From NCBI GenBank assembly GCA_051313645.2, contig JBNRSN020000011.1, positions 126,480,001 to 126,544,000 on the forward strand: a DNA stretch of 64,000 nt. The letters run 5' to 3'. Below, piece after piece: positions 1,405 to 39,986 of this stretch. A program made the position numbers and the translations under genes. Under the pieces are notes generated by a model. That model saw only the letters and a program-made list of their open reading frames with translations, was not told the DNA's origin and made no database searches. Each line of letters begins with the position of its first letter. Position 1 is the first letter of the stretch. The DNA is from Centroscyllium fabricii (lineage: Eukaryota).

Positions 1405-2546
1405 TTATTTATTATTTGTTTATGGGATGTGGGCGTCGCTGGCAATGCCAGCATTTATTGGCCATCCCTAGTTACCCTTGAGATGGTGGTGAGCCGCCGC
1501 CTTGAACCGCTGCAGTCCATGTGGAGAAGGTACTCCCACAGTGCTGTTAGGGAGGGAGTTCAAGGATTTTGACCCAGCGACGATGAAAGAATGGCGATAT
1601 ACTTCTAAGTCAGGATGGTGTGTGACTTGGAGGGGAACTTGAAGGAGGTAGTGTTCCCATGCGCCTGCTGCCCTTGTCCTTCTAGGTGGAAGAGGTTACA
1701 GGTTTGGGAGGTGCTGCTGAAGAAGCCTTGGCGAGTTGCTGCAGTGCATCTTGTAGATGGTACACGCTGCAGCCATGGTACGCCGGTGGTGGAGGGAGTG
1801 AATGTTTAAAGTGGTGGATGGGGTGGCAATCAAGCAGGCTGCTTTGTCCTGGATGGTGTTGAGCTTCTTGAGTGTTGTTGGAGCTGCACTCATCCAGGCA
1901 AGTGGAGAGTATTCCATCACACTCCTTATTTGTGCTTTGTAGATGGTGGAAAGGCTTTGGGGAGTCAGGAGGTGAGACACTCGCGACAGATTACCTAGCC
2001 ACAGATTACCTAGCCTCTGACCTGCTCTTGTTGCCACAGTATTTATGTGGCTGGTCCAGTTTGGTTTCTGGTTAATGGTGACCCCCAGGATGTTGATGGT
2101 GGGGGATTCGGCGATGGTAATGCCATTGAATGTCAAGGGGAGGTGGTTAGACTCTCGCTTGTTGGAGATAGTCATTACCTGGTACTTCTGTGGTGCGAAT
2201 GTTACCTGCCACTTATCAGCCCAAGCCTGAACGTCATCCAGGTCTTTTTGCATGCGGGCTTCATTATTTGTGGAGTTGTGAATGGCGCTGAACACTGTGC
2301 AGTCATCAGCAAACATCCCCATTTCTGACCTTATGTTGGAGGGAAGGTCATTCATGAAGCAGCTGAAGATGGTTGGGCCTAGGACACTGCCCCGAGGAAC
2401 TCCTGCAGTGATGTCCTGGGGCTGTGATGATTGACCTTCAACCAGCACAACCATCTTCCTTTGTGCTAGGTATGACTCCAGCTAGTGGAGAGTTTTCCCC
2501 CTGATTCCCATAGACTTTAATTTTACTAGGGTTCCTTGATGCCACA
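1405..2546 (-). mobile_element. Non-LTR retrotransposon (CR1/L2 group), 3' part of RT ORF plus 3' UTR
   Basis: ORF 1696-2454 has RT motifs GVPRGSVLGP and MFADD; it continues at 4248-4655 beyond the LTR insertion. Confidence 0.9.
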
Positions 2547-2790
2547 TGTGGTAAACCACTGTTGTATATATTTGCCTGTGTGTATACATGCCCGGGCATG
2601 CCTGAAGCTGACTCCGCCCCTAGCCTACCTGATAAAGGCCCGAGCTCTGGGAGCTTGGCCCAGTACAAGGAGTTGCCGGTCAGTCTAAGGATGTCCAGGG
2701 TTCTTAGTGAATAATAGCCTCAGTTGTATTCTCAACCTCACCTCGACTATAATTGATCGCGCATCAATTTTATTCACTAAGAGTTTTGAG

Positions 2791-3345
2791 ATGGACACCC
2801 TCCTAAAGCTATCCACCCAGGAACTCGACCCGAGCGCACCAGAGGCGCCGAGCAGCTTCTCCCACTGGCTAACCTGCTTTGAGGGATTCCTGGCGACCTC
2901 CGCCAGCACTGTCCAGACGGATGCCCAGAAACTCTTGCTTCTGCAGTCACGGCTCCATCACCGAGTGTTCCAACTCATCAAGGGAACAACCTCCTACACT
3001 TCGGCGATGGCCCTCCTCAAGGAGCAGTATGAGCGGCCGACTAGCACGGTTTACGCCAGGCACCTCCTGCTGACCCGCAAACAACGGCCCGGGGAGAGTT
3101 TCGCTGGCTTTGTGCGGGCCCCGACGGAGCTCAGCAGAGCCTGCAACTGCGAAACGGCCTCGGCAGATGAGCACAGGGAGCTGCTAGTCCGAGACGCCAT
3201 CGTCGCCGGCGTACAATCGGCCTACACCCGGAAGAGACTGCTGGAACTGGGGAAACTGTCCCTGAAGAAGGCCACAGACATCGGACTCGCACTCGAAGGG
3301 GCTGATCGGAGTATGGAGTCGTACGCGCACATGGCCACCCCATGG
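2791..3345 (+). pseudogene. Gag N-terminal region of the LTR element, joined to the extreme C-terminus of pol
   Basis: MDTLLKL...HWLTCFEGFL...RHLLLTRKQRPGES...RDAIVAGV is gag-like; just downstream another frame reads PRRSQRRTRPPERLMYT*, a typical Gypsy integrase tail. Confidence 0.8.
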
Positions 3346-3628
3346 AACCAGCACCGGAGCCACGACGATCACAGAGGCGTACCAGACCTCCTGAAAGACT
3401 CATGTACACTTGACTTTGTCTCACTTCACCCCGTTGGACTCATTTTTAAAGAAGGGGTGAATGTGGTAAACTACTGTTGTTTATATTTGCCTGTGTGTAT
3501 ACATGCCTGGGCATGTCTGAAGCTGACTCTGCCCCTAGCCTACCTGATTAAGGCCCGAGCTCTGGGAGCTTGGCCCAGTACAAGGAGTTGCTGGTCAGTC
3601 TAAGGATGTCCAGGGTTCTTAGTGAATA

Positions 3629-4188: not shown

Positions 4189-4247
4189 TGAATAAAAGCC
4201 TCAGTTGTATTCTCAACCTCGCCTCGAGTATAATTGATCGCGCATCA

Positions 4248-4655
4248 CCACACTCGGTCAAATGCTGCCTTGATGTCAAGGGCAGTCACTCTCTCCTCGC
4301 CTCTGGAATTCAGCTCCTTTGTCCATGTTTGGACCAAGGCTGTAATGAGGTCGGGAGCCGAGTGGTCTTGGCAGAACCCAAACTGGGCATCGGTGAGCAG
4401 GTTATTGGTGAGTAAGTGCCACTTGATGGAAGGTGTCATCGACAGTGCTATCACTTTGCTGATGATTGAGAGTAGAATGATGGGGCGGTAATCGGTCGGG
4501 TTGGATTTGTCCTGCTTTTTGTGGACAGGACATACCTGGGCAGTTTTCCACATTATCTGGTAGATGCCAGTGTTGTAGCTGTACTGGAACAGCTTGGCTA
4601 GAGGCACAGCTAGTTCTGGGGCACAAGTCTTCAGCATGATAGCCAGGATGTTGTT
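4248..4655 (-). mobile_element. Upstream part of the same LINE RT ORF
   Basis: ORF 4245-4637: LKTCAPELAVPLAKLF...YRPIILLS...QFGF...ALDIKAAFDRVW. Confidence 0.9.
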
Positions 4656-5461
4656 AGAAGCTGGAACACCGCTTCAGGACGGGAACGTCGATTCCCATTC
4701 CTGCTCTTAACACCACCAGGAGGGTGTTACATGGAAGTTAATGCTGGGCTCAATATCTTTAGCATCCAGCACAAATTTTTCTCCTGTAGCGCTTCATCCA
4801 TTTTCTGCAGCCATTAACCCAAGGCCGGTGACATCAGCAACTCTTGTGGCGGCCATGAATTTTTAGCCCGTTAATGTTTCTCTCTCCACAGATGCTGCCT
4901 GACCTACTGAGCATTTCCAGCATTTTCTGTTTTTATATCAGATTTCCAGCATCCGCAATATTTTGCATACGAATCTTTGGAAGTTGTGTTGGGGATTTGC
5001 ACTTTATTGGTTAGCCCTTAATTGGCGTATTGTATTCAGTTCTGGTTGCCACAACATGGAAACATATGCAAGTATTAGGAGAGGGAACAAAGAGCCACAA
5101 AATTGATTGTGGATGAGCTATAAAGGATTAGATAAGCTTAAGATTTACAGCCTAGAAAGAATGAGGTTGGAGAGATGTTTGAATGCTGTTTTAAGAATAA
5201 GCCAGACAGTGAGAACCAAATCATATAAATTTAAATTGATGAGAATAGTGTTAAAACTAATACAGGTTGAGCACCGGTAATCTGGCACCCGATGGCCCGG
5301 CACCTTCAGTGGTCTGGCACGAATGGAAACCGTCGGTCTTCAGTTTGCGGAGCAGCAGCTCGGCGGCACCACCACCGTTTCCCGCGAAGGGTGGGTGAGT
5401 GCTGAAGGCGTCGGGTTTTTGGGTTTCTGCTTTTTAGTGTTCTATCCCCGGGCTCCCTCCT

Positions 5462-5830
5462 GGGGAGTGTTCAACGCTCGCTCCGGGCCCCGGGGAGTGT
5501 TCTACCCGCGCGCTCCGGGCCCCGGGGAGTGTTCTACCCGTGCGCTCCAGGCCCTGGGGAGTGTTCTACCCGCGCGCTCCGGGCCCCGGGGAGTGTTCTA
5601 CCCGCGCGCTCCGGGCCCTGGGGAGTGTTCTACCCGCGCGCTCCGGGCCCCGGGGAGTGTTCTACCCGGGCCCCGGGGAGTGTTCTACCCGCGCGCTCCG
5701 GGGAGTGTTCTACCCGCGCGCTCCGGGCCCCGGGGAGTGTTCTACCCCCGGGGAGTGTTCTACCCGCGCGCTCCGGGCCCCGGGGAGTGTTCTACCCGCG
5801 TGCTCCGGGCCCCAGGGATTGTTCTACCTG
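5462..5830. repeat. 32-bp minisatellite inside TIR element copy 1
   Basis: Unit GGGGAGTGTTCTACCCGCGCGCTCCGGGCCCC, about a dozen full and partial copies. Confidence 0.95.
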
Positions 5831-6073
5831 TTAGGTTTATCTGCAAAAACGGAGGCAGAGGCGAAAGAGAAATACCGATTAACAACCACTGCCAACTAGA
5901 CCAGGTGACACAAGCCGCTTTATTTGACTCAGCAAGACGGTGCAGCTCGGATGAGGGTGAACCCCCCACCCCCATATCTCACTCCCCGTGCCTCCCAGCC
6001 ACCGCCTCTGGTGTTTGTTTGGAGCAATCGGTGGAATCCGGAGCTGAGCCAATTCAAAGAGTCGCGCCACTAC

Positions 6074-6157
6074 CTTGGTATCGTATAAAACCTTGGCCTT
6101 TGTCGGGTCTGGCTCGAAGCAGAGGACTCGTTCTCCTTCGCGAAATTTAAATTTCAT
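6074..6157 (-). pseudogene. MSL3: Captured MSL3 exon-1 coding fragment (start of chromo-barrel domain)
   Basis: [28 protein letters not shown] matches recalled vertebrate MSL3 ([28 protein letters not shown]); similarity stops at the donor-like AAG|GTAGTG. Confidence 0.88.
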
Positions 6158-6616
6158 TCACCGAGTGTTAATTTGGTCATGATGGAGTTGGAGGATGAGG
6201 AGGGGGGGTGGGTGAGGGTGAGAAGGGAGAGCGTTAATCTTCAGTGGTTCGGAATTTTCAATGGACCGGCACTGGCCTGGTCCCGAGGGTGCCGGATTAC
6301 CGGTGCTCAACCTATATAAGGAAAACTTGGTGGCACTTACTCAAAGTGACAAATGTTTGGAAAAATCTATGAGCCATCGTAATAGAGGAAGCCACTGGAA
6401 GTTCAGAAAGAGGCTGGATGCTGTGGTAGAATAAAAACTGACCTTCAATAGGCTGAATGGCTTTTTCTTACTGACGACTTTTGCATCCTCCAGTGGTGAC
6501 ACAAAGTGTTAATGTTTGTACGAGCCAGTGGCTGGTTTCCCTTGCTAGGGGGATGCCTACTTGGAGAGAGTCTGGAAATAGGATGGTGTACTGAGCAGTT
6601 TCACATCGTCAATTAT

Positions 6617-7046
6617 GGCCCAGAAATTCCGATCGCCCCGGGTGAGTACGCGCTGGGTACTCACCCGTAGGCCCATCCGATGTGCCGGTTTCGTACATGC
6701 ACAGCACATGTGCGCGAAACTGGCACTTCCGATCCCCTGACAGAAGGGGTCAGGGGTCGTAACGCGTGCGCGGCAGCGCGTGCACAATGCACTTGTGATT
6801 TTTTTACAGGTTCTGTCTCTGGGTAAGTTTGGAGAAAGATACGGTTCCTATTTTCATGCGCAAAGTCCCCTTTTCAGAAGGTAAGTGGTGAATTTATTCA
6901 ATTAAAAAAAAAAATCCACGGGTTTTTTATTTTTAAATGCTTTAAAGAAAGGTAAGTTTATATTTAGCCCCGTAAAAACCTTTAATTATTTTTTAATAAA
7001 TTTTTGCTTGCACTCGTGGGAAGCCTCCAACCCGAATTTCTGTGCC
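6617..7046 (+). mobile_element. Harbinger-group-like MITE, deleted relative of 38440-39986
   Basis: TIRs GGCCCAGAAATTC / GAATTTCTGTGCC; body matches the reverse complement of ~39600-39986. Confidence 0.8.
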
Positions 7047-8707
7047 AATATCTTTATTTTAAACCTAACAATCATGAAAAAAATGATGAAAAATCCCAGA
7101 ACATGATGGTAAACAACAAGCATAATCGCTTTGACACATACGCAACAACTACCCATGTGGCCATATTCCACCATTGGAACATGTGCACATGCAGCAGTCG
7201 TCTGATGGTTTCCTCCTGTTCAGCTGATTTGAACAGAAACGTCTTGAATGAAAGAAAATTCAAACATTGATTACAGTATCAAATCATAAAATGACGACCA
7301 TTTAAGCTGTGATCCGTTTCTTACATTTGTGTTAACTTTGAAAATGAATACTTATATTTTCCAATGATATTTTAATCAAAGTTTGAAAGAAAATGGACTG
7401 CATTGGGATGCAATACAGTGCCGTGTCATATATCTCAGTTTGAGTGGGAATCTGTTAGAATGTCTCCAGTGTTGTGCCCAAACATGAATAGTAGTTTCAC
7501 TTAAACACATTGGTAAGTGAGAACACAGTTTGATTCTGTTAAATGCTCACTGTCTGTTTCTCACCTCTTTCACTAAGAGCATCAGAAATTATGCCATCTT
7601 CTGCCAACTTGATGAAAGCATGGTGTCATGCAGCCTAGCAGACCTGTATTTAAGAAGCCTTGAAAATCATATTTGTACAGTTCCTTAAGCAATTGGGGGT
7701 GATAGAAATGTCCACTTTCTAATGGCACTCTGTAATGCCTTTGGGAGCATGTATAAGTGTAGCTTTCAATTCATAGAAGGGATTCATTTACACCAGCATT
7801 TTTTATTTGGTACAGCTAGACCATGAATGCACGTAGGGTGGAGCAAAGGGCCCTCTTACAAGGCCTGTGGACTTGGTATGTTCTGCAAACTTACAAAGTT
7901 TAACAAAAAACCACTCAACATATTTTGCATTGAGCCATTTTTCATTCCAATAGCAGAAAGGTTTCCCATGAAATATTGCAGTGTTTCTCCTGAGCTGTTG
8001 AGCTGCGATGGGCTTATTTAGCGAGGCAAGTGTTGTGTTAGATTAGGCGTAGCCTGGTTCTCCACACAATTACCTATGATGAAAATGCTTCTGGTCAGTC
8101 TCATTACAATTATGTAGGTAAAATAATACTGTCCTTTCCATGGACACTTTGTTATCGAACGGATAATCAGCCTGCAGAGAGGCAGCTTGTACAAAACCAT
8201 TTCTAATTGGTATTTTAGCTCCTCCTAGTGGTGGTGTCTATTGTTACTTTTTGAAGAGAAATCTAATCCATTTGAAAGGCTTTTAGCCTTTATCTGCGAT
8301 AGTGTAAAAAACTTAAATTTGAAATCATTTAAAATAGTTTGTAGTTACATTATTGCACATTTCTAACAAGAACTTTGGAACAGAAACTACAATCTCTATA
8401 AAAAAAAAGTTGTCTCAATATCGGTATACCTTTCAAAACCATTGCAAATAATGTTTCAAAGAGCTGCTGATAGACAGCGATTCTAGAGAGAGCTACAAAG
8501 ATTGTAATTTTTTTAAATCCTAGTTTTTCTCTCTCTTCCTCCTGAAGGTGTTGAATTGTTGCTGGGTGGGGTATGGTTCTGTGAGTTCCGGTGCATTTTA
8601 AAATCATCCTAAGTGACCATTCATGCATGAGCCTCGACACGGAATGGCAGTCAGCTTTTTGATTTTGGAAGCTTTGCAGCCAATCCTCTCCTCACTTGAC
8701 ATTCACA

Positions 8708-11617: not shown

Positions 11618-12009
11618 CAGGTTGTGCACCATTAATCTGGCACCATCGGGACCAGGCCGGTGCCGGACTACTGAAAAATCCGAACGGCTAAAGGTTCAGC
11701 GAGCGCATGCGCAGACCATTCAAAATGGCCGGCGCGCATGCGCAGACCATTCAAAATGGCTGCAGCACGCGCGCATTTGGAAAAAGCCCCGCGAGGGAGC
11801 CCGGTACAACACTCCACGGGGCAGGAGCAGGCAGAACACGTCCCGGGAGAACTCCTGGGGATAGAATTTATACATTTCAGGTATTTTGCACATGAAACCA
11901 AAGCACAGGAAGCGGTTGCGGTGCCGAGCGGCTGCTCGGAACGCTGAAAAGCGCCGCTCATTTGTCATGCCGGACGATTGAAGTTGCCGGATTAACGGTG
12001 CACAATCTG
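11618..12009 (+). mobile_element. Tigger/pogo-like TIR element, copy 2
   Basis: TA|CAGGTTGTGCACCATTAATC ... GATTAACGGTGCACAATCTG|TA; two GCGCATGCGCAGACCATTCAAAATGGC units. Confidence 0.88.
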
Positions 12010-13983: not shown

Positions 13984-14058
13984 GACTCCTACTCGATGCC
14001 CCTCACATCAATCCAGTGTTGGCACGTTCATTGTGAGGAATGCTGGCTCAGAACACTG
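13984..14058 (+). CDS. RNF220: RNF220 E3 ubiquitin ligase, penultimate coding exon (RING finger core)
   Basis: Polypyrimidine tract + CAG acceptor; 75 bp DSYSMPLTSIQCWHVHCEECWLRTL; GTAAG donor; matches the recalled RNF220 RING sequence. Confidence 0.95.
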
Positions 14059-18867: not shown

Positions 18868-19209
18868 CAGGTTGAGCACCATTAATCCGGTACCCTCAGG
18901 ACCATGCCGGTGCCGGACCACTGAAAATTCCAAACTGCTGAAGGTTTGGGGGGAGCGCGCGGGTAGAACACTCCCCGGGACCCGGAGCGCACGGGTAGAA
19001 CACTCCCCGCGAGGGTGCCTGGGGACATTATAAGCCCTAAAAAAACAGAAACTCAAACGCCCGATGCCTTCGGCACTCGCTCACCCTTCGCGGAAAACAG
19101 TGGCGCCGCCAAGCGGCTGCTCCGCAAAATGAAGAGCGCCGGTTTCCAATCGTGCCGGACCACTGAAGCTGCCGGACCATCGGATGCCGGATTACCGGTG
19201 CTCAACCTG
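18868..19209 (+). mobile_element. Tigger/pogo-like TIR element, copy 3 (empty relative of copy 1)
   Basis: TA|CAGGTTGAGCACC...GGTGCTCAACCTG|TA; reverse complement aligns with 5263-5530 and 6238-6314, with two minisatellite units and no MSL3 cargo. Confidence 0.9.
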
Positions 19210-24045: not shown

Positions 24046-24506
24046 CAGGTTGGGCACCAGTAATCCGGCACCCGATAATTCGGCACCTTCAGTGGTCTGG
24101 CGCGTATCCCGCTGGCCGGCCCACGTGATCCCAGGGATGCTCGCGAACCGCCAGCACCCCGCGATGCGTGGGCCACTTCCCGGCAGCACCCCGCGATGCG
24201 CGGGCCTCTTCCCGCCAGCACTCCGTGATGCGCGGGCCTCTCCCCGGCAGCACCCCGCGATGAGCACCGGAGAGTCCCAGGACCGCGAATCCCATTTCCT
24301 CACCATTTGCACTGTTCTACGCATGCGCAGCGGTTATCGTGATTGCTCTATGCGCGCGCAGCGGCCATTTTGACTGATCTGCGCATGCGCTGCGGCCATT
24401 TTGACTGGTCTGTGCATGCGCTCCCCGAACCGTCAGTGGTTTGGCATTTTCAGTAGTCCGGCACGGGCCTGGTCCCGAGGGTGCCGGATTAACGGTGCTC
24501 AACCTG
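24046..24506 (-). mobile_element. Tigger/pogo-like TIR element, copy 4
   Basis: TA|CAGGTTGGGCACC...GGTGCTCAACCTG|TA; its own ~31-bp CAGCACCCCGCGATGCG repeat x4; GCGCATGCGC and GCCATTTT units. Confidence 0.9.
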
Positions 24507-30740: not shown

Positions 30741-30812
30741 GGTGCCAAAAAGCTCTGTCCACAGTGCAACACCATCACGTCCCCTGGCGATCTCAGACGT
30801 GTGTATTTGTGA
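30741..30812 (+). CDS. RNF220: RNF220 last coding exon
   Basis: TTCTTCTTTTTCAG acceptor, then GAKKLCPQCNTITSPGDLRRVYL*, in phase 0 with exon 13984-14058. Confidence 0.95.
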   Translation, partial: GAKKLCPQCNTITSPGDLRRVYL

Positions 30813-38439: not shown

Positions 38440-39986
38440 GGCCCAGAAATTCGGGTCGGAGGCTTCCCGTGAGTGTAAGCCTCCAACCTGCACTTAACTA
38501 GCACGCCGGCCGTTGAGCTGTGGGCCCGCATGGAATTCCGATGCGGGGCCGCCCTCAACTGCATGCATGCCGTGCTCCCAGATCCCAGCGGTGAAGAGAG
38601 TGCGCGGGATCACGTAGGCCACGGAGAGCCAATCGGAGCACAGAATGCTCCATTCATAAGTTTGACAGGAAGACCTATCAAAAGTATGAATACAGGTTGA
38701 GCACCATTATACCGGCACGGGCGGGACTAGGCCTGCGCCGGTATACCGAAAAAACCGGAAGAATGAAGCTGGCCAGTGCGCATGCGCGCACCATTCAAAA
38801 TGGTTGCGCGCATGCGCATAACATTGGAAGTGGCTGCCGCAAGAATTCGAAACTCGTTCTAATTAAAAATGAGGCACACCACTTTTTAATGAAATGCCCG
38901 ATTCCTTTCTCTCTCCCCGCGACTCAGCGGAGATTTCCAACCGAGCGGGGCCGAAGCCCAGACCCGGGACAGAGATCCGGCACAAAGTACAGCAGCAAAC
39001 TGGCTGCTGCTCCCGGAGGGAAGGGGTGACGGGGCTGCGCCCAGTTAGCCGGCCGGCAGTGAAGAGCTTGCGGCGGGTTTGCAGGGACCCGGGACATTTG
39101 AAACCAGGCGGCGCCGCGCGATCCCTTTAAAGAGAAGCCGGGTTCAAGGACGCGCCCGAGGAACCCATTCCAGCCCAGGCTGCCAGTCCAGCGGCTCCGT
39201 CTCCTCATTCTTCAAACTCTCCGCCCGGCTTTGACACAACGGCCGCCTTTACCTTTCCGTGCTCTTCTCGGAGCCACGCATGCGCAGATCATTCAAAACC
39301 TCCAGCGGCCATTTTGAATGATCTGCGCATGCGCATGCCGTTCGGCGACGCATGCGCAGATCATTCGCTGAAGCATCAATCGCGGTGGCCATTTTGCGCA
39401 TGCGCAGGGCAGTCGGGGCAATTTGTTCCGGAAGACTGAAGCTGCCGGCTTATCGGGTAATGGATTAACGGTGCTCAACCTGTACTACAAGCCCCAAAAC
39501 ATCAATAAACCTTAAAATAATTTTTTTTAAATCACATTTTTAAAAATAACTATCAATTACATTAAATAACTATTTTAAACAATAATTTAAATTTTTGAAA
39601 AAATGAATTACAGTTTTGAAGGGGGCTAAAAATAAACTTACCTTTCTTTAAAGTATTTAAAAATAAAAAACCTGTGGGAAAAAATGTTTTAATTTGAACT
39701 AATTCACCACTTACCTTCTGAAAACCAGTCTTTGCACATTATAAAAGCAGCCGTAACTTTTCCATAGTTACCCAGACACAGAACCTGTAAAAAAAAAAAT
39801 CGGAAGTGCATTGTGCACCGCTGCCGCTCCCGCGCACGCATTCCGACCCCTGACCCCTTCTGTCAGGGGATCGGAAGTGCCCGTTTCACGCGCATGCACT
39901 GTGCATGCACGAAACCGGCACTTTGGATGGGCCTATGCGTGAGTACCCCGTCCGTACTCACGCGTTGGGACCCGAATTTCTGGGCC
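38440..39986 (-). mobile_element. Harbinger-group-like MITE hosting a nested TIR element
   Basis: TIRs GGCCCAGAAATTCGGGTC / GACCCGAATTTCTGGGCC; same family as 6617-7046. Confidence 0.85.
38693..39482 (+). mobile_element. Tigger/pogo-like TIR element, copy 5, with ~450-bp CpG-rich cargo
   Basis: TA|CAGGTTGAGCACC...GGTGCTCAACCTG|TA; GCGCATGCGC and AAAATGG arrays flank a unique interior at ~38820-39275. Confidence 0.9.

Follow-up and report, generated by a model that had tools for sequence, protein, structure and literature searches.

How does a stretch of DNA that reads like the beginning of the MSL3 gene come to lie between the TIRs of a transposon, and does it do anything there? The question is raised by a 64,000-nt window of the 7.2-Gb genome of Centroscyllium fabricii (C113:126,480,001-126,544,000; coordinates given without a contig or locus handle refer to this window). 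We consider it very likely that a non-autonomous, TA-targeting transposon captured the 5' UTR, exon 1 and the start of intron 1 of MSL3 once and then spread, carrying this piece as passenger cargo. Direct support comes from the single junctions shared by copies that are TA-flanked and scattered over the genome, an ancestral element without cargo, an apparently empty orthologous site in two relatives, neutral decay and the presence of two cargoes at one site.

The element, its cargo and the parental gene

The element at 5263-6314 (Table 1) had been predicted from the sequence to be a TA-flanked TIR transposon that carries exon 1 and intron sequence of MSL3, and its TIRs, its TA duplications and the existence of a collinear parent bear this out. 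The TIR arms (5257-5290 and 6287-6320) are 34 nt each and 91% complementary, the terminal C of the right TIR at 6314 having been mutated to T. The element has no transposase ORF and is non-coding. A 289-codon open frame that crosses it on the plus strand has no start, traverses the minisatellite and was disregarded. The MSL3 piece of 401 bp, which comprises 5' UTR, exon 1 and the start of intron 1, substitutes for approximately 15 bases of an empty element of ~345 bp, beginning 79 nt from the end of the short arm. Its 5' junction shows a short match between element and host, and its 3' junction a 6-nt filler. The insert had been placed at ~5831-6237; host-derived sequence indeed makes up 5837-6237, while 5831-5836 is the filler. 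What the original prediction did not contain is the expanded 32-bp minisatellite at 5462-5828. Among copies, the length of this array ranges from 0-1 to more than 40 units, and in one of them (L008) it has grown to more than 1.4 kb.

Table 1. Features of the element and its surroundings in the window
Feature	Position	Strand	Remark
Left TA target-site duplication	5261..5262	.	flank match of relatives ends exactly at 5262
Long arm of the element, TIR at 5263-5290	5263..5461	+	aligns with empty element 18868..19209
GC-rich minisatellite of 32-bp units, ~11 in this copy; most empty elements have 1-2	5462..5828	+	
6-nt filler at the boundary of MSL3 intron and element, common to the MSL3-cargo family	5831..5836	-	
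MSL3 intron 1, first ~237 nt from the GT donor	5837..6073	-	collinear with C335:32,586,364-32,586,604
Coding part of MSL3 exon 1, 33 codons; ATG lost, stop gained at 6160-6158	6074..6172	-	
MSL3 5' leader, last ~65 nt	6173..6237	-	3-codon upstream ORF overlapping the start codon in the parent
Short arm, 79 nt, TIR 6287-6314	6236..6314	-	all cargoes seen start 78-79 nt from the end
Right TA target-site duplication	6315..6316	.	
RNF220 exon downstream of the element	13984..14058	+	named via PF15926 exons upstream and RING-finger sequence
Empty sibling element, 342 bp, TA-flanked, same family	18868..19209	+	
RNF220 last coding exon	30741..30812	+	

Other repeats surround the element. A very high-copy repeat, present in relatives too, adjoins it at 6615-7070, and three further TA-flanked elements with related TIRs and differing interiors lie at 11618-12009, 24046-24506 and 38693-39482. 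In translation, the fragments at 1696-2481 (minus strand), 2689-3603 (plus strand) and 4245-4673 (minus strand) resemble LINE reverse transcriptase and LTR-element gag.

The assignment of the cargo to the MSL3 N-terminus, with exon 1 ending at the last lysine, was confirmed. The 28-residue peptide encoded on the minus strand by 6157-6074 resembles residues 16-43 of human MSL3 (PDB 3oa6; E = 1.3e-11, 24/28 alike), and a GT donor at 6073-6072 (minus strand) directly follows MSL3 exon 1. Searching the genome for the MRG domain led to an MSL3-type exon on C335, and within the 200 kb searched upstream of this exon the cargo matches a single place (C335:32,586,364-32,586,768; 83.7% over 417 columns). 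The match is collinear through the 5' UTR, exon 1 and ~240 nt of intron 1, so that 5837-6073 does correspond to MSL3 intron 1. The true gene, in which exons 2 and 3 and the MRG-domain exons follow in order, thus lies on a contig other than that of the window, and it has no TIR at either end of the stretch found as cargo.

The upstream codons had been read as a decayed start, and rightly so. The parent has an intact ATG, five codons ahead of the methionine named in the original prediction; the same ATG is found in 66/68 full-length copies and has become ATT (6172-6170) in the window copy, and the TGA in the window copy is a Gly codon in both the parent and the family consensus. The parent and the consensus of the copies differ at 2/99 sites in the exon and at 17/227 in the intron. 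Moreover, the parental intron is without 10 nt that are present in the copies. Contigs of two relatives cover this stretch with only 2 gap letters, which indicates that the copies retain the older state. A three-codon upstream ORF (L024:4701-4711; window 6169-6180), the stop of which overlaps the MSL3 start, is kept in the parent and in most copies. A related TA-flanked TIR element (L024:5370-5851) is found 600 bp upstream of parental exon 1, and several MSL3 duplicates that are not flanked by TIRs lack the 11 kb starting at this element.

Finally, exons of the RNF220 family (PF15926) were found on the plus strand 75-255 kb upstream of the element, the same strand as the downstream exons in the window, the last two coding ones, which we take to be RNF220 partly on the strength of their RING-finger sequence. 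This arrangement of exons places the element in a putative RNF220 intron, with the MSL3 piece antisense, as the original prediction had it. It follows from the geometry that RNF220 pre-mRNA would contain MSL3-antisense sequence.

The carrier family and its spread

The carrier shows the features of a MITE of the Tc1/mariner superfamily, namely a TA target-site duplication (TSD), short TIRs, the absence of a transposase ORF and a high copy number: 12,475 exact ends of its TIR are found in the genome. An unbiased sample of 27 TIR-picked short arms contained 15 that belong to empty elements of ~345 bp, 8 with one other interior, 2 with a piece of a MAM-domain gene and 2 others. The other variants at the cargo site (8, 1 and 1 of the 27 arms) were not traced to genes, and the commonest of them shares segments with other repeats. 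At one further locus (L004:2763-3402), the interior of a related TIR element resembles a first exon in a CpG island, with a splice donor at its end.

As candidate mobiliser we consider a TA-flanked element of 2.4 kb, which is of the pogo/Tigger type by its DDE_1, HTH_Tnp_Tc5 and CENP-B_N domains. Its ends agree with the MITE TIR in the first 4 nt and in a subterminal motif of 10 nt, but differ from it in the outer half. The start of the MITE TIR is, we presume, like that of human Tigger4. Like pogo/Tigger MITEs, our family combines a TA TSD, a TIR of ~28 nt, a lack of coding capacity and tens of thousands of ends, and a DDE_1/Tc5/CENP-B transposase family of similar age is present alongside it. 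It differs from them in that none of the 30 top DDE_1 loci (150 scored of 1,714 candidates) is an autonomous element bounded by the matching TIR.

Further TIR-flanked copies of the MSL3 cargo had been expected, and they turned out to be far more numerous than foreseen. The junction between intron and element has at least 154 matches in the genome (control, 0), and for an exon 24-mer, with up to 2 mismatches tolerated, 159 are found, a lower bound that includes the parent and some of the duplicates without TIRs. A search with the cargo returned 225 candidate loci, of which 40 were scored, at 89-100%. The read depth in one run (exon ~1,400 vs flank 7-9) fits 150-200 copies, although it is not a copy number. 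For closer analysis 102 loci were fetched. Once loci without a hit, repeats, the parent and three duplicates known to be without TIRs had been removed, 83 distinct loci with the MSL3 piece were left. Element features are present at 78 of the 83, both TIRs at 51 and the same end base at 65; the five loci without element features are two further non-TIR duplicates and three truncated copies. TA is found at 53/64 and 51/59 ends, and the 3' flanks are distinct in 59/59 cases. The copies diverge by 4.1% from their own consensus. In a tree of 72 rows, which is star-like (median tip 0.036) and in which 5/68 inner branches are supported, the bootstrap being not fully settled, the parent and the non-TIR duplicates form one clade (100/100). 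The single junction common to the copies, together with the star-like tree, therefore indicates one capture followed by a burst.

The site of the window copy was also compared between organisms. In runs of organisms E and F, the left flank can be followed to exactly 5262 (14 differences/325 nt and 13/309, respectively), the contigs continue past 5262 with 42-44 unaligned letters, and 5264-5285 is without cover. From the end of the alignment and the missing cover, the insertion site appears to be empty in these two relatives. Since the MSL3 part is found at the depth of unique flanks in both, the family is apparently absent there. In another individual of organism A, the insertion is present (contig over 6292-6641, 0 differences), and a run of organism B yielded a contig that crosses the junction of exon and arm.

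A nested insert of ~440 bp sits in the MSL3 leader at 29/83 loci, a fraction that is enriched since 36 loci were fetched with it. It is CpG-rich, exists in about 35 copies (L049:965-1400 and L170-L205) and contains one motif that we take to be CTCF-like. Scoring of 40 out of 2,198 candidates revealed no host-gene parent. Over its first ~107 nt the insert is similar to a different dispersed repeat, in the context of which one copy is located. The insert was thus probably taken from another repeat, and we do not claim it as a second captured gene.

A second cargo and the route of capture

One of the TIR-picked elements contains an antisense reading frame with a weak match to the MAM domain (Pfam, E = 0.0046). 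A word-indexed protein search with this piece gave no match, and the atlas offered only MAM as a lead, below 0.9. A HMMER search, however, recovered homologues among shark, ray and chimaera proteins, the best one being an 'apical endosomal glycoprotein-like' MAM protein of a shark (72%). The parental gene is on C825, where the two exon pieces occupy 180,481-180,564 and 207,040-207,096. The cargo of 141 bp consists of 57 nt of one exon and 84 nt of the next, joined exactly at donor and acceptor, although in the parent the two are separated by an intron of 26,475 bp; the cargo shows 3 differences from the parent over its 141 nt. A search for the exon-exon junction gave 1,336 matches in the genome (control, 0). 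Among 1,498 candidate loci, the 20 best all have element sequence on both sides of the MAM piece, in 18 cases at position 78 of the short arm. Of 30 fetched loci, 25 have both TIRs, and the flanks are distinct in 27/27 cases (positions of MAM loci: L137:1309-1450, L206-L225, L265-L294). Non-CpG change amounts to 3.1% (24 copies, 6 with indels excluded), an age like that of the MSL3 family.

At each of its ends the MAM cargo shares 3-4 nt of microhomology with the element, and it has neither poly-A nor a target duplication. With up to 3 mismatches allowed, the host sequence just past each of its ends has a single genomic match, the parental gene itself, which indicates that no longer retrocopy survives in the assembly. 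The exact joining of the exons, the lack of poly-A and TSD and the lack of a retrocopy donor together suggest that an RNA-derived template entered a DNA transposon. Donor and acceptor have a 4-nt word in common, and the intron contains 120 more such words; judged from these words, a precise DNA jump across the intron would be possible but unlikely. Formation of a processed pseudogene by LINE retroposition was rejected for either cargo, as the MSL3 piece has an intron and no tail, and the MAM piece has no intron, but neither tail nor TSD.

The cargo site lies in the 3' strand of a predicted hairpin of 6-7 bp. Of three windows folded, the one covering the short arm gave a significant result (z = -4.1), the two shifted into the repeat did not (+0.8 and -0.8). 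Template switching during break repair inside the element is a likely route of capture: a break or a stalled polymerase at the short hairpin, 78-79 nt from one element end, would be followed by repair primed by 3-5 nt of microhomology on a foreign template and by return to the element. For MSL3 the template may have been genomic DNA or unspliced RNA, and for MAM spliced RNA or cDNA. The spread to at least 154 sites would then have been mediated, likely, by a pogo/Tigger transposase acting in trans. Microhomology and filler would fit the FoSTeST model, in which an element is born beside the parent by fork stalling and template switching and then transposes. The relatives nearest to MSL3 exon 1 are cargo-free elements 0.6 and ~16 kb away, and the 200 kb searched contained no founder copy.

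The retained intron had been taken as a sign of capture at the DNA level. It does rule out spliced mRNA as the template, and thus retroposition of spliced mRNA, but it is also compatible with nascent RNA. We regard a DNA template for the MSL3 cargo as probable, since under it the intron needs no extra assumption. Rather unlikely, in our view, is that the same element, spreading in the same way, copied the cargo from nascent unspliced RNA or its cDNA and acted as a trap for RNA-templated repair. What credit we give to a nascent-RNA template comes from the parental gene, in which the start of the cargo precedes the ATG by 66 nt and follows by ~210 nt what we take to be a TATA-like box, presumably accompanied by other promoter-like motifs. 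Lying downstream of these motifs, the cargo is probably inside the transcript, although the start site is a predicted one. The MAM cargo at the same site, with two exons exactly joined, microhomology, no retroposition marks and flanks found only in the parental gene, points in the same direction; against this, a retrocopy donor may have disappeared or be absent from the assembly, and the 4-nt word permits a DNA jump. More broadly, and tentatively, the fixed site in the hairpin stem, 78-79 nt from the end, may be one at which foreign templates, RNA among them, serve to repair breaks, so that both cargoes would have been RNA-copied (MAM from mRNA or cDNA, MSL3 from a nascent transcript) and then brought by the cut-and-paste transposon to copy numbers in the hundreds or thousands. 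If true, this would amount to a fossil record, preserved in the genome, of break repair from RNA templates in the germline of a vertebrate and to gene capture on the scale of Pack-MULEs in sharks. For MSL3 our preferred template nevertheless is DNA.

Known systems and the fate of the copies

The element is of a known kind, a Pack-TIR, but has an unusual scale and an unusual sister cargo. Host sequence that does not derive from a transposable element lies between two parts of one TIR element, and there is an identifiable TIR-free parent, MSL3 on C335. Pack-TIR cargo is required not to be intronless, and the MSL3 piece has both donor and intron, whereas the MAM piece has none. The distinct 3' flanks and the TA ends reported above show that the family is multicopy. 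In the sections of PMC8277862 covered here, 370 animal Pack-TIRs are reported, none of them in elephant shark. Only 4 among 281 are multicopy, with few copies, and capture of a gene followed by transposition used to be regarded as rare for animal cut-and-paste elements; a frog example has 3-5 copies, compared to at least 154 (MSL3) and 1,336 (MAM) here. Intronless cargo was removed by design in that survey, and ARF6 in MER20, its only case of a retrogene, may reflect recurrent retroposition (PMC8277862). Pack-hAT-N8_XT, which carries the CAPSL 5' UTR, and Ssk-FB4 are like our element in that host sequence is found in a TIR element and has an unlinked TIR-free parent, and also in their junction microhomology, distinct TSDs and cargo of a few hundred bases from the 5' end of a gene (PMC8277862).

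Plant Pack-TYPE elements, as far as described in the covered sections of PMC8903248, have internal insertions of 100-400 bp, later nested additions and, in the Mariner type, a TA TSD. Like our family, maize Pack-PIF cluster 18 and rice Pack-Mariner comprise empty and loaded subfamilies of one non-autonomous element. Plant Pack-Mariner elements, however, are mostly low copy, the maize Pack-PIF example has 72 copies, and the host here is a vertebrate. The paired-element model of the same paper predicts cargo between two whole elements, whereas here ~15 nt were replaced inside a single one. The Helitrons of bats (PMC4224331, in part) are also class II elements of a vertebrate that carry 5' UTR, first exon and first intron in thousands of copies, and some of their cargo is intronless. 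They are rolling-circle elements, in contrast to the cut-and-paste TIR element described here, and their nested retrogenes (118 copies) have LINE-1 poly-A and TSDs, while the MAM cargo is an internal 141-nt piece with neither. Our literature search, which did not extend to subscription journals, Repbase/Dfam or bioRxiv supplements, returned no paper that deals with this element, with capture of MSL3 or with animal TIR elements carrying spliced cargo, and the portions of PMC13317346 and PMC13477047 that were covered contain nothing on spliced cargo.

A single family with 10^2-10^3 copies per cargo provides large samples for studying the mechanism of capture, silencing by the host and cross-talk with the parent. 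The more surprising lead is not the window copy but the spliced MAM sister cargo: lacking marks of retroposition, it points to a supply of RNA-derived templates to DNA transposons, and cargo of this class was filtered out in PMC8277862. On the practical side, approximately 150 near-intact MSL3 first exons and more than 1,300 MAM fragments will be a source of error when genes are annotated and reads mapped in this genome.

Decay was analysed in 49 copies that had not been chosen by exon patterns (19/68 were excluded); they had been selected for similarity to the window copy or the second insert. Outside CpG sites, the exon has changed by 3.17% and the intron by 3.09%. We counted 143 nonsynonymous (N), 41 synonymous (S) and 13 stop changes, where the intron spectrum predicts 130, 46 and 10 (N/S ratio 1.25, p=0.22). 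CpG sites change at 10%, compared to 3% elsewhere, with 199 transitions and 30 transversions, which is the pattern of methylated DNA. There are 25 CpGs in the parent, 23 in the consensus and on average 19.9 in the copies; the parent retains its CpGs, and there is thus no sign that silencing has spread to it. ATG, open exon and GT are kept in 32/49 copies, as expected for their age. By these measures the cargo appears to be a passenger that decays neutrally with no sign of function, and the window copy seems dead; co-option of single copies is possible, given those 32.

It is improbable that the copies are a regulatory device, be it as antisense or small RNA against MSL3 or as a portable first exon with a donor under selection. 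The antisense position in the RNF220 intron, the retention of ATG, frame and donor in 47/68 copies and the report that at least 30% of animal Pack-TIRs are transcribed (PMC8277862, in part) could be read in its favour; yet the exon diverges as fast as the intron, nonsynonymous and stop changes show no deficit, the window copy has lost its start, and the CpGs of the parent give no hint of silencing. Neutral decay of a passenger thus accounts best for the copies.

Rearranged duplicates of the MSL3 5' region that are not flanked by TIRs are found on C335 at 32.81, 32.87, 14.08, 22.77 and 40.70 Mb (L073-L077), and also on C767 (an array of 6 at ~120-kb spacing) and C734 (L243-L245). They show 90-99% identity, are younger than the capture, and two are without the region of the start codon. 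As donors of the cargo they were rejected, for they cluster with the parent and arose after the capture. Their existence is all that speaks for the extremely improbable reading of the window segment as a segmental duplicate or true gene start with TIRs as chance neighbours, since they form a clade apart with the parent, whereas the window copy has the junctions of the family, both TIRs, the TA duplication and an apparently empty site in relatives. A spliced MSL3 fragment at yet another locus (L295; C933:166,639,2xx-166,639,614, minus strand) is a separate capture at the RNA level: it contains the last part of exon 1 plus four more segments that resemble exons (87-98%), has 1 exact match in the genome, and directly follows what we take to be an LTR end and a primer-binding site.
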